A stretch of 64,000 nucleotides of DNA from an uncultured Desulfobacter sp. (GTDB lineage: Bacteria; Desulfobacterota; Desulfobacteria; Desulfobacterales; Desulfobacteraceae). Numbering within the stretch: the stretch's first letter is position 1; each line of letters begins with the position of its first letter. Under the pieces are notes generated by a model. That model was given only the letters and a program-made list of their open reading frames with translations. It searched no databases and was not told where the DNA came from. The DNA lies in NCBI GenBank assembly GCA_963665095.1, contig OY762069.1, forward strand, positions 160,001 through 224,000, given 5' to 3'. Below are positions 40,968 to 53,402 of this stretch, one piece after another. The translations under genes and the position numbers were made by a program.

Positions 40968-41123
40968 TAGTGCCTGAACGAAAAACCCGTGTTTGGTGTT
41001 TGGACGCAAAGTTGCCCAGATGCAAGGCGCAAGCAAAGCTGCAACCGGAGCGTACTCCAGTACGTGAGGATTGCAGCTTTGTGCAGCAACGCCGCAGGTG
41101 GGTGACTTTTCGTTCAAACACTA
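40968..41123 (+). repeat. ERIC-like / MITE-like palindromic intergenic repeat, most complete copy
   Basis: Terminal inverted repeats TAGTGCCTGAACGAAAA / TTTTCGTTCAAACACTA. Core GCAAGGCGCAAG...GGAGCGTACTCCAGTACGTGA...GCAGCAACGC. CTATTTAG overlaps both ends. Confidence 0.8.
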
Positions 41124-41124
41124 T

Positions 41125-43032
41125 TTAGGCCCTTTTCCCATACCCAATCTGTCCTAAAGAATCTTCAATTTCATCAAGGATGGTGTAGTCATCAATGGTT
41201 GCAGGGACCTTGTACTCTTTTTTATCCGCAATGGATCTCATGGTGCCGCGCAGGATTTTGCCGGACCGGGTTTTGGGCAGCCGTTTGACAACCATGGCTG
41301 TTTTAAACGCGGCCACAGGCCCGATTTCACTTCGAACCAGTGCAACCACCTCTTTCACCACTTCTTCCGGGTCTCTGTCCACACCGGCATTTAAAACCAT
41401 CATACCTAAGGGGATCTGGCCCTTGAGTTTGTCTTCAACACCCATGACCGCACATTCTGCCACGTCCTTGTGTGATGCAATGACCTCTTCCATGGCGCCT
41501 GTGGAAAGTCTGTGCCCGGCCACATTGATGATGTCGTCGGTTCTGGCCATAACATAGACATATCCGTCCTCATCAATGAATCCCGCGTCAGCGGTTTCAT
41601 AGTAGCCCGGGAATTCATTCAGGTAAGAATCCTTGTAACGCTGGTCGTTCTGCCACAGGGTGGGCAGGGTACCCGGCGGCAGGGGCAGTTTTGCCACAAT
41701 GGCGCCGATTTCACCGGACGCCACCGGATGGCCGTCACTTCCCAGGACTGCCAGGTTCCAGCCAGGGGCTGCCTTGGTGGGGGATCCGGGTTTAACTTTG
41801 AATGGATGAATCCCCATACAGTTGGCGGCAATGGCCCAGCCTGTCTCTGTCTGCCACCAGTGATCAATGACCGGTACATTCAACGCATTTTCCGCCCAGG
41901 TAAGGGTGTCCGGATCCAGTCTTTCACCGGCCAGGAACAGGTATTTGAAGCAGGAGAGATCAAAATCTTTCATCATTACAGCTTTAGGATCTTCCCGTTT
42001 TATGGCTCTGAAAGCTGTTGGCGCCGTAAACAGCGATTTCACCTTGTGCTGGGAGATAATCCGCCAGAACACGGAAGCATCCGGGGTGCCCACAGGTTTT
42101 CCTTCAAAAAGAATGGATGTACATCCCTTGAAAAGAGGTGCGTATACAATGTAGGAGTGGCCCACCACCCATCCGATATCAGAGGCGGCCCAGTAAACAT
42201 CTCCCTGGTCAACCCCGTAAATGGCACTCATGGTATACTTCAGGGCAACCAGGTGTCCGCCGTTATCCCTGACCACCCCTTTGGGCTGGCCTGTGGTGCC
42301 GGAGGTATAAAGAATATAAAGCGGGTCTGTGGCCAGCACCGGTACACAATCCTGGGCAGTGGCCTTTGCCATTTCATTTTCCCAGTCAAAATCCCTGTCC
42401 GGCACCATGGATGCCGTGGCCTGGGGGCGCTGAAAAATGATGCAGGATTCCGGCTTGGCATCACTAAGGTCAATGGCTTTGTCAAGAAGCGGTTTGTAGT
42501 CTATGACTTTTTTGATTTCAATACCGCAGGATGCCGACACAATGACTTTGGGTTTGGCATCATTGATCCGGGTGGCAAGCTCGTTGGCGGCAAACCCGCC
42601 AAAGACCACGGAGTGGACAGCACCGATTCTGGCGCAGGCCAGCATGGCAAAAACCGCTTCCGGGATCATGGGCATGTAGATAATGACCCTGTCTCCTTTT
42701 GTGACACCCTTTGAGGCCAGAACCCCTGCAAACCGGGATACCTGATCTTTAAGATCTGTATAGGTGTATTCCCGGATGGTATCTGTTACCGGGCTGTCAT
42801 AGATAATGGCAGCCTGATCCCCTCGACCGTTTTCCACATGGAGGTCCACGGCATTGTAACAGCTGTTGGTCTCACCACCGCTGAACCACCTGTAAAACGG
42901 TTTGTTGGAGTCATCCAGCACTTTATCCCATTTTTTGTACCAAAAGCAGTCCTCGGCAATGGCGCCCCAGAATTCTTCGGGATTATTAATGGAACGTTCA
43001 TAGGCCTCATCATACAAATTAGACATAGACAT
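41125..43032 (-). CDS. prpE: Propionyl-CoA synthetase (acetate/propionate--CoA ligase)
   Basis: YTSGTTGQPKGVVRD, SDIGWVVGHSY, DHWWQTETG, INVAGHRLS and LPKTRSGK motifs. Confidence 0.88.
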   Translation of the reverse strand: MSMSNLYDEAYERSINNPEEFWGAIAEDCFWYKKWDKVLDDSNKPFYRWFSGGETNSCYNAVDLHVENGRGDQAAIIYDSPVTDTIREYTYTDLKDQVSRFAGVLASKGVTKGDRVIIYMPMIPEAVFAMLACARIGAVHSVVFGGFAANELATRINDAKPKVIVSASCGIEIKKVIDYKPLLDKAIDLSDAKPESCIIFQRPQATASMVPDRDFDWENEMAKATAQDCVPVLATDPLYILYTSGTTGQPKGVVRDNGGHLVALKYTMSAIYGVDQGDVYWAASDIGWVVGHSYIVYAPLFKGCTSILFEGKPVGTPDASVFWRIISQHKVKSLFTAPTAFRAIKREDPKAVMMKDFDLSCFKYLFLAGERLDPDTLTWAENALNVPVIDHWWQTETGWAIAANCMGIHPFKVKPGSPTKAAPGWNLAVLGSDGHPVASGEIGAIVAKLPLPPGTLPTLWQNDQRYKDSYLNEFPGYYETADAGFIDEDGYVYVMARTDDIINVAGHRLSTGAMEEVIASHKDVAECAVMGVEDKLKGQIPLGMMVLNAGVDRDPEEVVKEVVALVRSEIGPVAAFKTAMVVKRLPKTRSGKILRGTMRSIADKKEYKVPATIDDYTILDEIEDSLGQIGYGKRA

Positions 43033-43559: not shown

Positions 43560-44786
43560 TTATGGCAATATTAAATTCGCAAAATCCTGGGCCAGCACCT
43601 GGACGCCCCGGAACCCCATAAAGGGGGTCCAGGCAAAACGTTTGACCATGCCCAGATTGGGGTTTGATACCTGCAGCCCGGGAATTTGCCCCTTAAAATG
43701 CCTGAGGGTTACGGCGTCCGCAAGCAGGTAATCCGGGGCTGCGTTTGCGATAAATTCGTATTTTAGAGAGTCGTTTTTGAAGAAATTGAATGCCGATGGC
43801 ATGTATTCAGGTATCGGGTGGGTCAATACCAGGGCTGACACATGAAAGCCCAGTTCATCCCTGATAAAAGGGGCCAAACCTTTTAACAGATCATATGGAC
43901 CGCATATAACAAAGGACAAGGTCCTGTGCCCTGCGATCCGTTTCTGGTAATCCAGGCGCTGCCTGAATTCACTGATGGTTTTGGCTTCCTTTTCCAGAAA
44001 AACGGCTGACGGGGATCGGCCGGTTATTTCAGCCACAGATTCTATCCAAGAAAGCGTTCCTGCGATGCCATAGGGCGCTTTGTAATAATAGGGCTGGCCA
44101 AAGCGGTTTTTTAGAATCTTGGCACAGGGAATACCCTCGTTGCGCAGCACAATATTGAAGGCGGCCTTGCCTGCAATAGAGAGCTCTTCCATAGAGGTGT
44201 CCGCAGTGAAAATCGCTGCGGCGGTATACCCGAAAGCACCGGCCATTAACCGCTCGATTTCCCGGATATCAGCCAGATAGTTACAGCAGTCCATTCCCGG
44301 GCCGATGATGTTATAAGTTGTCATTTCAACGGAAGGCGCCTGCCTGACCACGGTTTTTGCAACCATGGACAAGGCCCGCCTTACGCCTTGGGTATGTTCT
44401 GAGGAAAGACTTATCCCGCTGAAAGGGATCACCCGGGTCGGCGTTTCCCTGCTCAGTGCCAGACAGATCCCGTCCATGTCCATGCCGGTGATCTCCGATA
44501 CCGCAGAGGGAATAATAAAGAGATGGGAGGGATGACGGTTGTCAATAAGTTCACGGACTGCTGTCTCCAGTCGCCCGGGATCTCCGAAAACCACTTCGTT
44601 TTCCGTCAGACCCGTAGTATAAAGATCAGCCCTCATGGGGGCATTGTAGGTACCATGCTGGGCAGCCGCGTAATGGGTGGAGCCTTCGGGGCCGAATTCC
44701 AGGACGCAGGCACCCCTGATCGTGCCCAGTGTCCATAGAATACCCATCCGTTCCGAAGCATAGGGAAGATCCTCAAATAAAATCAT
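43560..44786 (-). CDS. Nitrogenase component 1-like oxidoreductase subunit (NflK/BchB-like, no cluster Cys)
   Basis: FGPEGSTHY, TTGLTENEVVFGD, SEITGMD, YNIIG, APYGIAGTLSW and PFMGFRG motifs. No Cys at the canonical ligand positions. Confidence 0.82.
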   Translation of the reverse strand: MILFEDLPYASERMGILWTLGTIRGACVLEFGPEGSTHYAAAQHGTYNAPMRADLYTTGLTENEVVFGDPGRLETAVRELIDNRHPSHLFIIPSAVSEITGMDMDGICLALSRETPTRVIPFSGISLSSEHTQGVRRALSMVAKTVVRQAPSVEMTTYNIIGPGMDCCNYLADIREIERLMAGAFGYTAAAIFTADTSMEELSIAGKAAFNIVLRNEGIPCAKILKNRFGQPYYYKAPYGIAGTLSWIESVAEITGRSPSAVFLEKEAKTISEFRQRLDYQKRIAGHRTLSFVICGPYDLLKGLAPFIRDELGFHVSALVLTHPIPEYMPSAFNFFKNDSLKYEFIANAAPDYLLADAVTLRHFKGQIPGLQVSNPNLGMVKRFAWTPFMGFRGVQVLAQDFANLILP

Positions 44787-46051
44787 GATGCAGTTTCCTT
44801 TTCCAATTGCGCCAAAAGGGTGTCATAGAATGTTTCGGGATAATCGGTCCCGATCCGGGGGAAAAGGCCGGTGATGGAAATGAGTTGAGGTCCGTTTCTG
44901 TCTCTGGCGGTATCCCATCCCATGCCGACGTGAAAATCTGCGTGAAGCTGTGCTGAAAAGGCGTTAAGGGCTGCTGTATTTGCATTTTTAGCTACCATGG
45001 GATCCTGGCCCATTTCCAGAAGCGCCTGCCTGGCCCGGGCGTCATGTTCATAAATATTGCGGGCAAGGATCAGTTTAATTCTTCCACCTGCCCGGGCAAT
45101 CAGGCAGGCGGAGGCAAAGGGGGAACCCGCCGTGTTGCCGATAATGAATTCTTTTCCCTGGCAAAGCGGTTTCAACCGGCTTAACAGGTGTTTTATTCTT
45201 TTTTTAGCCGCTTCAAGGTCGGCGGTGTAGTCGTGCGCCGTGATGCCGGAAAGGACGGCATAAGCGCTTTCGATACAATCCCAGTCAGAGGACGGTGACA
45301 GGTCGGCAAAGGGAATGCCAAAATCGGCTTCAAGCCGCCGGGCAAACCCCAGGGCAGTCTTTTCGGCGACAATGGCGAAGGATGACGAAGGAATCCGGTG
45401 AATGGCTTCAAGATCTGTGTTGTGTGGGAATTGCGCTGCCAAAGTGAATCCGTCCCGGATCAGCCTTTGGATGATCCGGTTGTCCGCAGTCCCTTGAAAT
45501 CTTGGGCCGAGAATGGAAAAATTTTTCGGTATTTTTGCCACCGGGGACAAAAGATGGGTGACTGAAGCCATTGCCTGTTCAACACCGTCAAGGTAATCGG
45601 CTGTTTTAAAATTCTCCGTTTTTACCACGGAAACCGGGGTGCAGCACCGGGTACTTGCCACAATGCCACGGATATCATCGCCGGTCAGTTCAATGACACA
45701 GGAGGTAACCACCACGATCAGCTGTGTGTCAGGGTCCTGATCCAGCCGTCTGATGATTTGTTTAAGCCCTTCCTCGCATCCATTGATTACGTCAGATTCA
45801 TCCAGTACGGCGCACCGGATTTTGGCGCCAGGTTTTCCGGGATCTGAAAAATTGTTCATGGTTTTGTAAGTGTAGAATCCACAGTCAGCCGTTCCAATCA
45901 CCAGCATGGTGACACCCCGGATATTTCCAAGGGTGAAGTGAACCCCGAAAAGAGGGCAATGCCCCCCAGGATATATGCAGGCCTGGAGCTCATGGATATC
46001 GGTACTGTCCGTGACCTGTGACAACAGCTTAGGATTCAAGGCGGACCTCAT
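44783..46051 (-). CDS. Nitrogenase component 1-like oxidoreductase subunit (NflD/BchN-like, three cluster Cys)
   Basis: [26 protein letters not shown] and [11 protein letters not shown] motifs. Confidence 0.85.
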
Positions 46052-46790
46052 TTTTCATGATCCGGGCGGCCAGGGCAGTGAAGACCTTTGCGGCATCCGA
46101 TTCCGGGTTCCCCTCAACCACGGTTTTGTTTTCCTGTTCCCATCGGTTGATTTCCGCGTCCCTGGGAATTTTCGCCAGCAGGGGAACGTTTAGGGTGTCG
46201 CAAAGCTGTGTAACCAGGGCATCCTCGTTTGAAACGTTTCGTGTATTCTGGATAACGCCGCAAAGTCTTGCATAGTTTCTGTCCTTAAACCGGTCAATGG
46301 CCATGGCAATATTCCGGGCCGCGTAAAGTGCCATTTTTTCACCTGAGGTAACAATGATGACTTCCCTTGCATACCCGTCCCGGATGGGCATGGCAAATCC
46401 ACCGCATACAACGTCACCCAGGACGTCGTAGAGCACGTAATCCGGGGCAAGCTGCTTAAAAGCCCCTTTTTTTTCCAGGAAGTCAAAGGCTGTGATGATG
46501 CCCCGGCCGGCACAGCCAACCCCGGGGGACGGCCCCCCGCATTCCGCGCAGAAAATGCCATTAAACCCGGTTACCACCACCTGGCTGAGCAAGGGGGGTG
46601 TTGGAGACCTGACATGCTCCAGGACAGGTAAAACAGGCCTGCCACCCGTCAGGTTAATGGTGGAATCCGCCTTGGGGTCGCACCCGATCTGAAATACTTT
46701 TTCCCCTTGAAAGGAGATGGCTGCCGCCAGGTTGGCGCAAACCGTTGATTTCCCAATGCCGCCTTTTCCATAAATGGCAATTTTTCTCAT
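46029..46790 (-). CDS. Nitrogenase Fe-protein-like reductase (group IV NflH)
   Basis: [32 protein letters not shown] and [14 protein letters not shown] motifs. Only 253 aa. Confidence 0.92.
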
Positions 46791-47554
46791 ATAGCGTCCT
46801 TCAGGATCAGAATTTTTTGATCCTTTTGCATGATAAATTCGGTTTCAATTCCAAAAACCTCCCTGATACTGGATTCTGTCATGACATGTTCCGGAACCCC
46901 CATGCTCCTGACGCATCCTTTGTCCATTAAAAGGATGCGGTCGCAGTATTTTAAGGCCATGTTCAGATCGTGGATGGCAATCACGGCCGAATAATTGTGC
47001 CGGGTTACCATTTGCCGGACCAGTTTCAGGGTTTCGAACTGGTACCGGATATCCAGATTGCTGGTGGGTTCGTCGAACAGCATGATCGGGGTTTGGGAGG
47101 CGATCACCCGGGCAATGACAACCTTTTGCTGTTCCCCGCCGCTTAAAGCTGAAACATTTCTCATGGCCATGGATTCCATGTGAAGGCCCTCCAGGGCCGT
47201 TATCGCCTTCTTTGCGTGCCGTGCGGCCTCTGCCCGGTTTCGTGGTTTCCCCATCCCCGCCATAACCACCTCAATTACCTTGCAGGGAAATGCGGCTGAA
47301 TGCTTCTGGGGCACATAGCCGATAAGTCTGGCAATATCCCTGACCGGGTAGTTTTTTATGTCTTTTCCCCTGAGCAGGACCCGGCCCCTGACCGGGGACA
47401 GGATTCGGTTCAGGCACCGGATCAACGTGGATTTGCCGGCGCCGTTGGGACCGATAAGTCCTACAAGTTCACCCGCAGCCAGGGTAAAGCTAATATCTTT
47501 AAGTACGGGCCTGCCCCGATAGTAGGAAAATGATATATCCTGAACCTGAATCAT
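46787..47554 (-). CDS. ABC transporter ATP-binding protein (FecE/BtuD/HmuV type)
   Basis: [24 protein letters not shown] and IHDLN motifs. Confidence 0.93.
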
Positions 47555-48633
47555 TGTTCCCCCCGACCAAGTTTTCTGACAATAATCAGCAGGAAAAGGG
47601 GAACACCCATATATGCAGTAATGATTCCCACCGGGATTTCCACCGGCGAGATGATATTGGCGGATAGAAGGTCTGCCCCGGCTAGAAGCAATCCGCCAGA
47701 AAGGCCTGCCATGGGAATCAGGTACTTGTTGTCGGATCCGATGACCATCCGGCAGATGTGCGGCGCCACAAGACCTATGAATCCGATGGTTCCCACGAAA
47801 CAGACAATGGTAGATGTTAAAAATACGCTGAGCAGCAGGGTGACAATCCGAATCCTCTTAACCGGGACACCAAGACTTGTGGCTGTTTCATCCCCATACC
47901 CCAGGATGTTCATCTGCCAGGACTGGCTGAAAATTAAAACCGATGTTACGGCCAGGACCAGGGATGTAACCCTTATTTTCATCCAGTCCGCGGTACCCAG
48001 GGAGCCGACCATCCAAAACACCACTTGCTTGACAGCCTCGTCTTCGGCAAAGTATTGCAAAAGCGTAGTGGTGGCAGAAAAAAGAAACATCAGGGCAATA
48101 CCCGTCAGAATCATGAACACCGGCGTGGCGTTTTTCCCTGCGCTGATGCCGATAATCAGCAGAGCGCATAACATGGCACCGGCAAAGGCGTTTACAATGA
48201 TGCCCCAGGTTCCGGGAATAAGGGAGATATTCAGAACAATGGCCAGGGTTGCACCAAAGGATGCGCCTGAAGAGATGCCAAGGGTATAGGGCGATGCCAT
48301 GGGGTTCCGCAGGACTCCCTGCATCACGGCACCAGCAATGCCAAGTCCGCAGCCTGATACCAGGCCCAAAAGGATTCGCGGCAACCGGATATTGATAATG
48401 ATATGCTCGGTCAATGGCGACAGACCTGAAGGCCTTTGAAAAATTTTTCCTGCAATGGCCCTGCAAATCTGGGGGACCGGGATGTCAAAGACACCCACGG
48501 CCGTTCCCAGGCAGGTGAACAGGGCAATGACAATAACCAGCCCCCACAGGAAAAGCTGCTTTGCAGCCAGGGAGGACTGGTATTGTTTGAAAATCCTGTA
48601 TCTGTCGTTATCCAGGGTCATGGAATCAATCAT
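47551..48633 (-). CDS. ABC transporter permease (FecCD/BtuC family)
   Basis: IRLPRILL, QGVLRNPMASPYTLG, GDETATSLGV and GFIGLVAPHI motifs. True start is ATG 48633 or 48621 rather than 48813. Confidence 0.93.
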   Translation of the reverse strand: MIDSMTLDNDRYRIFKQYQSSLAAKQLFLWGLVIVIALFTCLGTAVGVFDIPVPQICRAIAGKIFQRPSGLSPLTEHIIINIRLPRILLGLVSGCGLGIAGAVMQGVLRNPMASPYTLGISSGASFGATLAIVLNISLIPGTWGIIVNAFAGAMLCALLIIGISAGKNATPVFMILTGIALMFLFSATTTLLQYFAEDEAVKQVVFWMVGSLGTADWMKIRVTSLVLAVTSVLIFSQSWQMNILGYGDETATSLGVPVKRIRIVTLLLSVFLTSTIVCFVGTIGFIGLVAPHICRMVIGSDNKYLIPMAGLSGGLLLAGADLLSANIISPVEIPVGIITAYMGVPLFLLIIVRKLGRGEQ

Positions 48634-49897
48634 CTCCCTGCCAGGTCCTGAATACAGGGTGGTTCGTGATTTCCCAGGTATACAGGCCCGGGGTGCCGTA
48701 GAAAAATTCAAGCATATGGTTCGCCTTTTTTTCCACATCAATATTCCGGAATTGTTCCGGGTACAATATTTTGGCGATATACCAGGTTTCTGCTGCGCTG
48801 AAAGCGGAATCATATCCGATCCGGCCGTTTCGCAGGAAAACTGCCTGTCCTGTTTTAATGGCTTTAAGCAAGGACAGGGTCGGATCCTTTTTTATTTCGT
48901 CGATCATGCCGGCCAGGTGGGGCCAGTATTGGATGAAAATTACGTCCGGATCCCATTTAAGAACCTGTTCCAACTGGATTTCCCCGAAAAAAGGGGCATT
49001 GGCAGCTGACGGCATGGTACCACCTGCCAGCAGAATGGGGCTGTAAATCCTGGCCCCTCGGTTGATCTTCCCGGAGCAGTACCAGGCACTGCGTTTTTCT
49101 GCTTTTGACAGCGCGCTTATCCGGGATTTAAGCATCCCGAACTCATTCTCACAAAAGTTGATGATGTTAAGTGCCCTGTCCTGTTTGCCGAATATATATC
49201 CCAGGGTCAGCCAGTTTTCATAGGGTCCGTTCTCAATAGCGTAATCCCGGCCGTTAAGGTTGTCCCTGGGCTGGAATACCGGTGCGCCCGAAGCGGTTTC
49301 AAGCACTTCTGCCTGGTCGGCCTTAACCTGTCCTGCAAGGATCAGATCCGGATGAAGGGCGGCCAGTACTTCTTTGTTCGGTGCGCCGGAAGTACCGACA
49401 TTGATCCGGTCCGAAAGCTTTGGGCAGGCCTTGAGAAAGGCAAACTGCCCCGCATATTTGGATCCTTTGGCCGTATAGGCGTCTATACCTGCGATTATAT
49501 CTTGGACACCAAGCTGGACCAGAGTTCTGGTGCCCCAGGGGGCCAGGGTGACCAACCGGGTAACCGGCAGCCGGATGGTAACCGTTGCCCCTGATCTGTC
49601 AACAAGGCTTATACTTCGGGCCGTGCCGTCCATCAGGGCCTGAATGCTGGCCAAGTCGTTTTTGTCTACAACTCCGTCCCGATTGGCGTCCGCATAGGGA
49701 GTCACAGGCGCGGTCCCTTTGATAACCGCATAGACGTAATTTATGTCTGCCGAATCAATGGTCCAGTTCATGTCTGCGTTGCCATAAATATCCAGCATAA
49801 AACCAAACCTGTCGGCCGCTGCTGAAGGCTGTGCAGCCATGGCAACCTGTGCCGGTATCCATGAAAGCCATAATACCAGGAAAATAAGATAGTTCAT
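48626..49897 (-). CDS. Metal-chelate/cobalamin-type ABC substrate-binding protein with N-terminal dockerin-like repeat
   Basis: Signal peptide; GNADMNWTIDSAD / ADANRDGVVDKND repeat; DRSGATVTI, PNKEVLAALHPDLI and EQVLKWDPDVIF motifs. Confidence 0.88.
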   Translation of the reverse strand: MNYLIFLVLWLSWIPAQVAMAAQPSAAADRFGFMLDIYGNADMNWTIDSADINYVYAVIKGTAPVTPYADANRDGVVDKNDLASIQALMDGTARSISLVDRSGATVTIRLPVTRLVTLAPWGTRTLVQLGVQDIIAGIDAYTAKGSKYAGQFAFLKACPKLSDRINVGTSGAPNKEVLAALHPDLILAGQVKADQAEVLETASGAPVFQPRDNLNGRDYAIENGPYENWLTLGYIFGKQDRALNIINFCENEFGMLKSRISALSKAEKRSAWYCSGKINRGARIYSPILLAGGTMPSAANAPFFGEIQLEQVLKWDPDVIFIQYWPHLAGMIDEIKKDPTLSLLKAIKTGQAVFLRNGRIGYDSAFSAAETWYIAKILYPEQFRNIDVEKKANHMLEFFYGTPGLYTWEITNHPVFRTWQGDD

Positions 49898-49914
49898 TGG
49901 CGTTATCCCTGGAA

Positions 49915-51708
49915 TTAAAAGGTATGCTCGTAGGTCAGTAAAAACCCGCGTTCCTCAAGTATGGAACTGCCCCCTGCATTGATGGCGTCATCCCTGTCTA
50001 ACAGGTTGTTCACATTGAGACGAATGCTGTCTTTGTCTGTGATATCATAAGCGGCATTCAGGCTTACGTCCCAAAGGGGGTCTGTGTCATCGACCCTGTC
50101 AGATGCGTGGTGGACCATAAGATTGACCATGCCCTTGCTGAACCGGTATCCCAGGTTCAGTTGCATCCCGAACCGGAACTCGGTATCTTCCCAGTCGTCG
50201 CTGCTTACAGTTTTCTGTTCCGGCTTGCCGTAGTAAAGCCCCGCACCGCCAATCAGGCCCGTGGCCGTATCATGGCGGAAAGCCAGTTCTACCCCTGTAT
50301 TTCTGAACTTGTTGGCATTCAGGTAAATGGTTTTACCTTCCGATGTTTTGCCGCTGTAAATACGGTTGTCGATATCCATATGAAAGAGGGCCAATTTAAG
50401 GCTGTCAAACCGGGTAAACAATGTTTTCCATCCCATTTCATAGGTCCATCCGATTTCGGATTCCAGATCCCCATTAGGTTCCTGGGTGGCGGAATACCCG
50501 TACCGTTGTGACAATGTAGGTTCCCGTAAGGATCTATTGATATTCAGGTACAGGTTGCTGCTGTCTCCGAGGGCCTGCAGGATCTGAAACTGGGGGCAGA
50601 AGACATTGTCTGATGCGTTGCTGAGCACCTCCCTGGCCCCGGCCAGAAATTTTGTGGAAGCAAACAGGTCTGTTTCCGTCAAAAAGAAGAGCGCTCCCTT
50701 GTTCCGGGTATTTTTGACCCACGCGTCGTTGTTGATCCGTTTGGATAATTCGTGGTCGAAGTTGCCGCCCGCAGTCAGGGAAAATTTTTCAAAAACCCAC
50801 TTGTCCTGGATATCTGCGCCATAAATTCGGCCTCGCTGTTTCCCGGTGGGGTTTGTATATGTCCACTCCCGGTTTTGTCCGTAGACCATTATCTTGAGGT
50901 TTTCATGTTTATAGCTGGCCTGGCCGATATCGTATACGGTTTCATTTTCCCATGGTGCGCCTGCGGAAAGACCTGTGGACGCACTGTACTTGGAGCTTGT
51001 GGTTTCTCGCTGACTGTGCAGGAACATAAAGTTGAAATGCTTGTTCAGCTCGTAGTTCAGGGTGAGGTTATCCCGTTTCAGGTCATCACCATAATAGTTG
51101 GTTCTTGACGTATAAATGAGCCCTCGCTGCTGTTCCTGGAAATGCTCGTAGGCCAGGGAAAGCCCTTTGGCGGATAAAAAAGCGCTACCCTGTCGTTTCC
51201 CGTTGTTTCCTGCCCCAACCGAAATCGTGCTGGGCCCGTCTTTTTTAGTGATAATATTTACTACACCTGTTGTGGCGTCGCTGCCGTACAGAACAGCAGA
51301 TCCGCCTTTGACAAGCTCCACACGTTCGATGCCTGATGTGGCAAAGCTGCCCAATTGAAAATATCCGTCGTTGGCAAGGGGAATGCCGTTGACCAGGATG
51401 GTCAGGTATCCGGTGATACCCCTGAACCCGGGGAGTCCGTTTCCGGACGGGGACCTTGAAATCGAAAAGTCCGGGACTGTACTGATAACATCCAAAAGAG
51501 TTTTGGCCCCCATGTTCTTGATGTCTTCACTGGTAAAAACCTGGGTTGAGGCCGGAATTTCTATATCTTTCTTCTCGCCACGGGTTGCAGTGACGATCAT
51601 TGGATCAAGTTCTGACGTATCATCTTCCTGGGCTTGGATATTGCCTGAAACCAAAATGAGGATGATCATTGACAAAAAGATTGTAAGAGTTTTTTTAAAT
51701 CGAGTCAT
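49915..51708 (-). CDS. TonB-dependent outer membrane receptor (BtuB-like size and context)
   Basis: Signal peptide, TonB box DPMIVTATR, plug IERVELVKGGSAVLYGSDATTGVVNIITK, NNLLD and terminal aromatic YEHTF. Confidence 0.92.
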   Translation of the reverse strand: MTRFKKTLTIFLSMIILILVSGNIQAQEDDTSELDPMIVTATRGEKKDIEIPASTQVFTSEDIKNMGAKTLLDVISTVPDFSISRSPSGNGLPGFRGITGYLTILVNGIPLANDGYFQLGSFATSGIERVELVKGGSAVLYGSDATTGVVNIITKKDGPSTISVGAGNNGKRQGSAFLSAKGLSLAYEHFQEQQRGLIYTSRTNYYGDDLKRDNLTLNYELNKHFNFMFLHSQRETTSSKYSASTGLSAGAPWENETVYDIGQASYKHENLKIMVYGQNREWTYTNPTGKQRGRIYGADIQDKWVFEKFSLTAGGNFDHELSKRINNDAWVKNTRNKGALFFLTETDLFASTKFLAGAREVLSNASDNVFCPQFQILQALGDSSNLYLNINRSLREPTLSQRYGYSATQEPNGDLESEIGWTYEMGWKTLFTRFDSLKLALFHMDIDNRIYSGKTSEGKTIYLNANKFRNTGVELAFRHDTATGLIGGAGLYYGKPEQKTVSSDDWEDTEFRFGMQLNLGYRFSKGMVNLMVHHASDRVDDTDPLWDVSLNAAYDITDKDSIRLNVNNLLDRDDAINAGGSSILEERGFLLTYEHTF

Positions 51709-51758
51709 GTTGCGGTTCCCTTTTCATATAGTTGTGAGTTTAAATCATTCGCCCAAAT

Positions 51759-51794
51759 AAAAAACCCCGGCTCATTATATAAATGAGTCCGGGG
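51759..51794 (-). terminator. Attenuator terminator in the riboswitch expression platform
   Basis: Minus strand CCCCGGACTCATT...AATGAGCCGGGG followed by TTTTTT, between the aptamer and the receptor start. Confidence 0.75.
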
Positions 51795-51860
51795 ATTCCC
51801 TTTTTTTCCACGAAACACAGCTTACCCCTTTCCCGGCTTCGAGGGATAGGGTTATCTTTT

Positions 51861-52055
51861 TTCAGGCAGGTCTTCTGACTTCCGGATCAATCTACTTGTT
51901 GCGTCTTCCCAGCGGTTTTATCGAAAAAGCCTGTTCCGGTTTTTTTTAAACCACCAGTGACATCCTGCTACAACTTTCGTCCCCGGTTACAGCGGCGGGC
52001 CCGTTCCGGCATTAAACCGGATTCCCTATTAAGCTCATTAAGAGCACCTAAAAAA
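51861..52055 (-). ncRNA. Cobalamin (AdoCbl) riboswitch
   Basis: Minus strand AGGTGC...AATAGGGAATCCGGT...CCCGCCGCTGTAA...GTCACTG...CTGGGAAG...B12-box AAGTCAGAAGACCTGCC. Confidence 0.95.
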
Positions 52056-52122
52056 AATTAACAACTCAATATCTAATCGCCCTTTGGGTGTCAATATGAA
52101 TATTAATTAAGTAAAAATTTTG

Positions 52123-53402
52123 GTAACTATTCAGTTCAATGAACATCAAGATTACTTAATGGGATACAATCTTTTTTCTTTTTGACAAGCAAAGAATCAC
52201 TCAGCTATAAAATCCGGCAGTTTGCCTTGGAACAATAAGCGTAACGCTTCGGTTGCTCTCATTCCATGCTTTTTGCAAGTTGATAGGTAACTGCAAACAC
52301 GACAGAAGATTGCGGCCCCCTCTGTAGAGCGAAAGCAGCCTGATATTTTCTGCTGAACTTTTGTCATCCTGATATCATTTTCGCCCTGGTTATTGCTAAA
52401 CGGAACCTGTTGTTCATCCATAAAGCAAAGAATCTCCGTTTCATAGTCTATTAGCCGTTCCAGCCTGACTGATCTGCAATAGGAGGTCTCTCATGTCCCT
52501 GGCCCATGATTGTTTGTCCTGTTCCCAGGCTCTTTCCAGTTCTCTGAGGTGATGAGCATTACACAGGGCATGATGGCAGTCTAATTTGAAATATGGTTTC
52601 CAATGATCATGGCAAAGAACCCCCTTGAAATTCGGAATCTTTACCTGATCCTGAAAATCTTCTTCAATCCGTTTATACGGAACCAATTGGTACTGTGACA
52701 TATAGACTGAATGGACTTTCACATTAAGGCCATATTGCACCGGGCGGGTGACTCCTTCAGGGAATGGAGCCGTGAACTTTTTCCCATTGGCATCTTCAAG
52801 AATTTGTGCCCTGTATTCGGTTACTATCCGTGAAATATCAATATCGACAACCTGTCTGGATTCAAACCCTGCATCTTTGTACATCCCTTCCGGCAGAGTT
52901 TTTCTGTCCAAAGGGATATCTTCAATAAAATCCGGGGAATCAAATTGTTGCAGAGTAGTGCCGGTATGTCCTTTTTGTCCTCCAACTTTGCGGTCTCCCG
53001 TTGGTTTCTTTTTCTTGTTCCGGTTAGGGTCTGTTGAAGGAGGTTTGCTGCTGTTACGACTGTTGAGGCCCAGTTGATTCATCATAAGAATGATTAATAC
53101 CAGCAACATCTCTATGGTGCTTTTCAAAGCAGGGGAAACGCCAGGGTCATTTGAATGAAGATATTATAACACAGGTTTTTGAGGTAATTTTTTTCGAACA
53201 TAAAGGCGTTTTTACGCATTTTTAAATTTTGGATATGGCTGGCCATTCATCTGTCGGCTAAAAACCAGTGGATCTGATGATATCCGTTATAACCCTCCCC
53301 AATGAAGGGTTTTGTATATGAAACCGAAAATTCAAATTTTTCGCCAAAACCCCTGTCAAGGAGAAAATGACATCAAATGCATTTTTTTTGCTGAATAGTT
53401 AC
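52123..53402 (-). mobile_element. Internally deleted IS66-family (ISBst12-like) element
   Basis: Perfect 12-bp terminal inverted repeats GTAACTATTCAG (52123-52134) and CTGAATAGTTAC (53391-53402) enclose transposase fragments. No matching flanking duplication. Confidence 0.88.
52197..53127 (-). pseudogene. IS66 transposase pseudogene (two fragments)
   Basis: LNSRNSSKPPSTD, GGQKGHTG, GVLCHDHW, LCNAHHLREL, then VPFSNNQGENDIRMTKVQQKISGCFRS in a separate ORF. The central DET-containing segment is absent. Confidence 0.9.

Follow-up and report, generated by a model that had tools for sequence, protein, structure and literature searches.

The window analysed here is a stretch of 64,000 nucleotides (64 kb) from an uncultured Desulfobacter sp. 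(contig OY762069.1, positions 160,001 to 224,000; its genome is referred to as G000). Its minus strand carries a cobalamin riboswitch followed by seven genes, four for a TonB/ABC-type importer and three, nflHDK, for a nitrogenase-like (NFL) enzyme. The enzyme likely frees cobalt, or a B12 ring precursor, from the imported compound, a job unreported for any nitrogenase-like enzyme.

The operon, its leader and the enzyme NflHDK

All features of the operon lie on the minus strand. The riboswitch aptamer (51848..52066) covers the full RF00174 model (positions 1-189) with 111.6 bits against a gathering threshold of 31.5 (E 4e-27) and is the sole Rfam match in the 64-kb window. Just 5' of it is a perfect candidate sigma-70 -35 hexamer (52089..52094), a region in which the promoter scanner listed no full promoter. 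On the other side of the aptamer, folding reveals an intrinsic-terminator-like hairpin with a U tail (51755..51794), a predicted attenuator. The hairpin itself (51794-51765, U-rich tail 3') has a folding energy of -21.6 kcal/mol (z -3.55, equalled by 1 of 200 shuffles); the simple terminator scanner did not list it, for which the loop limit of the scanner is the likely reason. An antiterminator may form if six nucleotides of the aptamer, at 51986, base-pair with the left arm of the hairpin.

The importer genes encode a TonB-dependent receptor of 597 aa (49915..51708) and a class III periplasmic binding protein of 423 aa with an extra N-terminal segment (48626..49897), both assigned from open reading frame (ORF) and Pfam, a FecCD-family permease of 360 aa (47551..48633; PF01032, E 2.7e-89) and an ABC ATPase of the haem/corrinoid/siderophore importer type with 255 aa (46787..47554; hidden Markov model (HMM) and Pfam). 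They are followed by NflH, a NifH-like Fe protein of 253 aa (46029..46790; HMM and Pfam), NflD with 422 aa (44783..46051; Pfam, alignment and model) and NflK with 408 aa (43560..44786; Pfam and alignment). From the receptor gene to nflK the successive gaps are +17, -8, -4, -4, -23 and -4 nt, so that five of the six junctions overlap. The most likely start of the permease gene is 48633, behind a purine-rich stretch, and not the longest-ORF start at 48813. A first-pass annotation of the bare sequence had described the same order of riboswitch, attenuator, receptor, binding protein, permease, ATPase and nflHDK; the covariance scan and seven ORFs with named Pfam families bear it out, and the three 4-nt overlaps that it listed (47551-47554, 46787-46790 and 44783-44786) are all correct. 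The region from about 41.6 to 51.9 kb is gap-free on single contigs from each of three public runs, one of which may be the run from which the window itself was assembled. Strain variation within the operon genes in run X6 is uninformative, with 11 synonymous and 10 non-synonymous changes among the 21 sites of an incomplete list.

In the alignment NflH retains the Walker A motif as well as the two cluster cysteines, C93 and C129. Cysteines C32, C57 and C118 of NflD correspond to the three NifD cluster positions and are invariant in 16 aligned sequences. The ligands of the iron-molybdenum cofactor (FeMo-co), Cys275 and His442, are missing from NflD when it is aligned to the NifD of the same genome: glutamate occupies the cysteine site and no histidine occurs in the matching region. 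Cysteine is missing from all three NifK cluster positions of NflK in a comparison of 21 relatives, and the ORF and Pfam scan found no radical SAM gene in the operon. A Mo, V or Fe nitrogenase was rejected because the FeMo-co ligands are missing and the cluster cysteines number three in NflD and none in NflK, not three each. MAR (group IV-C) was rejected since NflK is without cysteine ligands and the operon without a NifB-like MarB or other radical SAM gene.

On the operon proteins all NCBIfam models for nitrogenase, DPOR, COR and Cfb stay below their cut-offs, and the ligand patterns differ from those of the characterised families. By HMM scores and ligand patterns the Nfl proteins thus stand outside these families, so that nesting in a characterised clade, which the first-pass annotation had named as a refutation, is not seen at this level. 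The predicted model of NflD (mean pLDDT 86.5) has the superfamily fold. BchB chains top its structural ranking (Z 29.9, rmsd 4.1, 385 aligned), with VnfK, NifN and MarD within 2 Z units; Foldseek delivered only matches of 13-19% identity, spread over Nif and Mar chains. NflDK would be of a DPOR-like design, in which a single simple cluster goes with an open pocket able to take a bulky substrate.

Importer and riboswitch linkage among relatives

The loci collected comprise 10 from genomes, 79 from metagenomes (drawn from the best 80 of 211 confirmed stretches), one from a plasmid (of Sporomusa termitida, L125), 10 from 399 Clostridia genomes and two from the window's genome, and fall into 40 clusters at 90% identity. 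A profile retrieves 169 clusters at 50% identity (E up to 1e-30), and the collected loci are therefore a partial sample. A FecCD permease gene lies within 10 kb in 35 of the 40 clusters, or in 31 of 33 when only clusters with 4 kb or more of upstream DNA are counted; the two that lack it despite such flanks are the L062 cluster, a paralog with adjoining TonB receptor and binding protein, and L160. Such a permease gene is missing from the surroundings of all 11 loci compared that encode nitrogenases or NFL enzymes of other types. The importer link is family-wide and spans haem-type and siderophore-type branches as well.

A same-strand cobalamin riboswitch precedes the genes in nine of the ten genome loci according to Rfam (eight of the nine scanned first, then the tenth); the single miss, L036, is a 3 kb contig that begins inside the operon. 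Sixteen further loci are without an Rfam cobalamin riboswitch, and L093 has one. A second model, built from 26 riboswitches, yields the same split over 93 loci, the training sequences matching by construction, and three new loci among 20 more. Overall, 12 of the 40 clusters have the riboswitch. The first gene behind it is nflH in L035, L037, L038, L154, L156 and L157, and control is therefore not limited to the transporter. Back-to-back divergent cobalamin riboswitches stand before nflH in L037 (514-4629) and L038 (7734-11974), with a third directly behind nflK. Within host genome G404 the nfl genes are followed, in the same direction, by CobN/ChlI/ChlD and cbiK, A, C, D and F.

In a tree of 54 rows the window clade (support 100/99) includes one Desulfobacterales locus, eight clostridial loci and six proteins without context. 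All nine rows of this clade with enough flanking DNA have the riboswitch; one further row is a short contig. L154 and L156 form a separate riboswitch-bearing branch, so that the riboswitch link was either gained twice or lost in between; long branches leave the deep order of the tree unsure. The pairing of riboswitch, importer and NFL genes is kept in relatives from two bacterial phyla. Homologs thus retain the linkage to importers and to B12 riboswitches on which the first-pass annotation had staked its proposal, and for which it had suggested a survey of neighbourhoods.

Sister branches without the riboswitch differ in the type of importer. The binding proteins of a haem-type branch are near Lmo2184 and IsdE (E 1.7e-55 and 5.8e-48), and a methionine and a histidine align to those of IsdE, residues that serve as its haem ligands. 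In some loci of this branch a flavodoxin, a NEAT protein or a radical SAM enzyme of the ChuW type, scoring below its cut-off, is encoded as well, and a related branch has ChaN and TonB/ExbBD; among the individual loci, L054 (12640-14489) and L079 (4039-6999) have NFL genes paired with those for flavodoxin plus a radical SAM enzyme like ChuW/HutW, or else for ChaN plus a TonB receptor of the haem type. A siderophore-type branch has FeuA/YfmC-like binding proteins, two permeases, AraC, and esterase or NRPS genes. Fur-like boxes (at least 15 of 19 consensus positions) occur in 8 of 18 non-riboswitch leaders versus none of 10 riboswitch leaders (p 0.025). In their gene content the sister branches point to a metal cargo, and a metal-freeing reduction would suit haem, siderophore and cobalt cargo alike.

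The operon was found in one of 300 other genomes in the order survey (contig coordinates same as L032), in none of two genomes of the same genus and in none of seven of the same family; it is therefore rare and patchy in the genomes searched. The phylum survey, made with the first alignment, returned G000 as the sole true family member, two weak matches being other NFL types, and viral contigs delivered no match to the NflD patterns. A broken IS66 transposase gene (window 52200-53127, minus strand) lies immediately 5' of the riboswitch, and together with the patchy distribution this hints at horizontal acquisition. Downstream of the operon, a short intergenic repeat (window 40991-41130) has 92 BLASTN matches in the genome and very high contig depth. 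In L034 (10168-10985) nflK is split across two frames, by assembly error or decay.

The window's genome has 14 cobalamin riboswitches, three further NFL sets and, separately, a group of four genes for catalytic subunits of the nitrogenase type, one of them with the NifD ligand pattern. In L027 (4634-18478; G000:C1:254633-268477, minus strand) a second cobalamin riboswitch heads another nflHDK, with cysteines in both subunits, together with genes for a TonB receptor, a ferredoxin-like protein, a 2-hydroxyacyl-CoA dehydratase subunit with its ATP-dependent activator, two ABC exporters and a binding protein; CobN genes and cbiZ adjoin. This set lies outside the window family in the tree, which gives the genome two NFL types under B12 control. 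A 65 kb island (G000:C1:203500-268500; the window from 43560 onward, L030, L173 and L027) holds three cobalamin riboswitches, two NFL sets, three CobN-family genes, ChlI/ChlD-type ATPases and cbiZ. The third NFL set (L028/L174; G000:C1:6126300-6143100, plus strand) belongs to the same family as that of the window and is preceded by a DUF4198 protein, two TonB receptors, methyltransferases, a FecCD importer and an Opp/Nik-type ABC system; neither a riboswitch nor a Fur-like box was found there, and its cargo is possibly a nickel chelate. A fourth set is located in L029 (9235-12544; G000:C1:3524252-3527543), behind putative hydrogenase maturase genes.

Cargo, host genomes and proposed function

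The importer of the window appears unlike the Btu system. Its receptor reaches 96 bits on the B12-receptor (BtuB) model (cut-off 599.7), versus 258 for another riboswitch-led receptor of the genome, and the scores on BtuC (219 versus 334 bits) and BtuD (142 versus 281 bits) also remain below cut-off. By sequence and predicted model the binding protein is nearest to TM0189, MolA, YiuA and H. pylori CeuE, proteins whose ligands, as far as known, are small metal complexes; BtuF is absent among the 22 sequence matches and the fold matches listed. These comparisons argue against finished B12 as cargo and, since receptor and binding protein appear unlike Btu, point to a cobalt chelate or a precursor. 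The first-pass annotation had proposed B12-repressed import coupled to low-potential reduction: this is supported in part, in that importer and riboswitch are both kept in homologs, with B12 repression and the reductive chemistry as predictions. Residues 45-90 (approximately) of the binding protein (window 49630-49770, minus strand), within its extra N-terminal segment, form aspartate-rich, calcium-loop-like repeats which are conserved in close homologs and match no Pfam family.

Fourteen genomes with the riboswitch-type set were surveyed for B12 biosynthesis genes, G807 being assigned by sequence only. CobS is present in all 14, cbiD in 13, cbiL in 10, hemB in seven, with uroporphyrinogen methyltransferase above cut-off in the same seven, and a clear cbiM in five; cbiK was found in nine of ten tested. 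Most of these hosts thus build corrin rings, and with cbiD and cbiK at these frequencies they can use free cobalt. The background of cbiD in the family of G401 is 65 of 201 genomes, and the clostridial hosts are enriched for it (8 of 9 versus 64 of 200, p 0.001), although the census tests overstate and one host lies outside the control family. No clear cbiM was found in the nine clostridial genomes of the window clade; among cbiD-positive genomes it occurs in none of eight clostridial hosts versus 9 of 20 hand-picked controls. CbiD is also present in four of seven genomes with non-riboswitch family members.

The most plausible reading, which we put forward tentatively, is that the riboswitch-led NflHDK operon imports a chelate and frees its cobalt by ATP-driven reduction. 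With B12 in short supply the attenuator would open and switch the operon on, yielding one transcript from the leader through nflK that is repressed by B12, and the importer would bring in a cobalt chelate. Co(III) complexes are inert. NflDK would form a D2K2 tetramer in which each DK pair has one [4Fe-4S] cluster, coordinated by the three NflD cysteines and a non-cysteine fourth ligand; electrons would pass from ferredoxin or flavodoxin via NflH to this cluster at the expense of ATP and make the inert Co(III) complex labile by reducing it or its ligand, and the resulting Co(II) would be handed to CbiK for corrin synthesis.

Several observations weigh against cobalt release. The matches of the binding protein are only about 20% identical, and its model has a mean pLDDT of 72. 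A cbiM gene is present in the window's genome, G403, G520, G692 and G493, where the system is therefore at most an extra route, and G404 has a weak partial cbiM match just above the Pfam cut-off. Most hosts are draft or metagenome-assembled genomes, relatedness makes the hosts non-independent, and the cbiM controls, 20 in all, were chosen by hand. A 10/12 promoter-like match (49602-49575) lies within the binding-protein gene, with ten such sites found versus a chance expectation of 14.2. Six of the eight cbiD-positive clostridial hosts lack hemB and uroporphyrinogen methyltransferase, a loss which suits tetrapyrrole salvage better than plain cobalt uptake. Finally, the characterised simple-cluster NFLs DPOR, COR and CfbD reduce tetrapyrrole rings, not free chelates (as described in PMC13474568).

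The main rival, which we consider somewhat unlikely, is the salvage of an oxidised or wrongly metallated early B12 ring precursor (siroheme, factor II/III or their cobalt forms), where NflHDK would, in the manner of CfbCD and DPOR, reduce the ring or remove its metal and the product would re-enter the anaerobic cbi pathway. Loss of both early genes in six of eight hosts compares with 17 of 64 cbiD-positive background genomes (Fisher p 0.011; 20 of the 64 lack hemB, 17 of these also the methyltransferase). HemC was not found in any of five hosts tested, nor cbiL in G401, G404, G807 and G808. G401, G404 and G808 (L176, L171 and L172) keep cbiK and later cbi genes and are without hemB, hemC, the methyltransferase and cbiL, a gene set that would need uptake of a precursor at the level of factor III, if the drafts are complete. 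Precursor salvage also gains from the haem-type importer of one sister branch, from the BchB chains heading the structural ranking (Z 29.9) and from the existence of tetrapyrrole precursor salvagers as a described class, mostly Firmicutes (as described in PMC6461909). On the other side, this nflD was not found in any cbiD-positive background genome (64 genomes, 20 of them without hemB), so that a requirement of NflHDK for precursor salvage was rejected; the window's genome and six other hosts have the complete early tetrapyrrole pathway, the cargo of the siderophore-type branch is not a tetrapyrrole, and VnfK, NifN and MarD follow BchB within 2 Z units.

It is improbable that the operon combines an atypical corrinoid importer with an NflHDK that reduces cobamides or cobinamide (Co(III)/Co(II) to Co(II)/Co(I)) and removes upper ligands before adenosylation or remodelling. 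B12 riboswitches commonly precede corrinoid importers, cobS is present in all 14 hosts and the island also includes a cbiZ at a distance of about 40 kb; however, the low score of the receptor on the B12-receptor model (96 versus 258 bits) and the absence of BtuF among the listed matches of the binding protein speak against it, and the enrichment of cbiD (8/9 versus 64/200) is unexpected for uptake of finished corrinoids. Very improbable is a role of the nfl genes as passengers or separately transcribed genes with another function such as metal-cluster assembly, the riboswitch governing the transporter genes only: the suggestion of metal transport coupled to cofactor assembly (PMC3464626), the promoter-like match within the operon and the split nflK in at least one relative (L034) are set against overlaps at five of six junctions, nflH as first gene behind the riboswitch in six loci, and a riboswitch link that holds across two phyla despite varying gene order and recurs in the branch of L154, L156 and L157.

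The core common to cobalt release, precursor salvage and corrinoid reduction is that NflHDK reduces the cargo of the importer for B12 supply. For the family as a whole we lean slightly towards a new NFL class of ATP-driven metal-release reductases for anaerobes, which would act on haem or siderophore iron under Fur control and on cobalt or a cobalt-tetrapyrrole precursor under B12-riboswitch control. If this is true, the window encodes the first nitrogenase-like step in vitamin B12 supply, metal acquisition joins the chemistry of the nitrogenase superfamily, and gut and sediment anaerobes have a route by which they get cobalt or ring precursors for B12. The case also warns against taking these nifH-like genes as markers of nitrogen fixation. 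The functions of uncharacterised nitrogenase-like systems are counted among the greatest challenges of the field in section 10 of a 2026 review (PMC13474568), where gene context is considered of little help. Here the riboswitch ligand and the dedicated importer suggest a growth condition and a short list of substrates, and with a cultured host, Lawsonibacter hominis NSJ-51 (L041), the question is directly testable.

Comparison with known systems

DPOR (BchLNB) and COR (BchXYZ) resemble the window set in the three-subunit design, in three cysteines on one subunit, the N/Y cluster cysteines corresponding to NflD C32, C57 and C118, and in the lack of ligands for a complex cofactor. Their models, with cut-offs of 324-912 bits overall, are not reached: NflH scores 179-181 versus 331-345 bits, NflD at most 34 bits, and NflK 81 versus 529 (BchZ) and 79 versus 490 (BchB) bits. 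NflK is also without the aspartate at the middle NifK cluster position, and the genes stand in importer context, not among bch genes. CfbCD (group IV-B) shares the ATP-driven reduction and the simple [4Fe-4S] design, with NflH at 313 bits on CfbC; however, this is below the cut-off of 402, the CfbD model reaches 25-26 versus 268 bits, and CfbCD has a single catalytic subunit (homodimer), whereas the window set has separate D and K subunits and is bacterial and importer-linked.

ISR (IsrBHDK, group IV-F) is likewise an NFL acting with a neighbouring ABC importer on an imported compound. It was rejected as identity of the window set because ISR has one D cysteine and three K cysteines, the reverse of the three in NflD and none in NflK, and because it needs IsrB; its importer is of the SsuABC type and it serves sulfur metabolism (as described in PMC11423573). 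The haem de-chelatase HmuS works in a similar way, since an anaerobe here links metal-complex import to reductant-dependent metal release, but its CobN-family fold is unrelated to NflHDK and its reaction is NADH-dependent and ATP-independent (as described in PMC12583661). Group VI NFLs of Elusimicrobia share the lack of NifB and of FeMo-co ligands and at most four cluster cysteines, traits not unique to group VI; their radical-SAM-rich context, as far as described in 10.1101/765248, is missing from the window.

The available part of the 2026 review (PMC13474568) names no NFL in cobalt, B12 or iron acquisition, and the words 'riboswitch' and 'siderophore' do not occur in its main text. No paper tying an NFL to a cobalamin riboswitch was found in the literature searched, in which subscription journals are thinly covered and of which supplements (PMC3464626 Figure S2) and regulon databases may hold one.

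Closest to the window set is the 'light blue' clade of Dos Santos 2012, uncharacterised NifHEN-like sets beside ABC transporters, for which metal transport coupled to cofactor assembly was guessed and no function assigned in the text available (PMC3464626). Like the window set, the clade has three cysteines in the D/E-like subunit and none in the K/N-like subunit, no FeMo-co ligands, and genes located 3' of nifH and an ABC ATPase gene. No riboswitch is mentioned in the text examined, whereas the window branch is led by a B12 riboswitch and occurs in a sulfate-reducer order and Clostridia. NflHDK fits this ABC-linked clade, matched by the cysteine pattern and the gene context as described. The first-pass annotation had ranked the operon as the window's best candidate for an undescribed system; this applies to the B12-regulated branch alone, which appears undescribed, but not to the importer link, which is family-wide and was noted already in 2012. 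The operon is a real and conserved, B12-regulated variant of this NFL clade, noted before but uncharacterised, and its role, in the scavenging of metal or of precursors, is probably new and can be tested.

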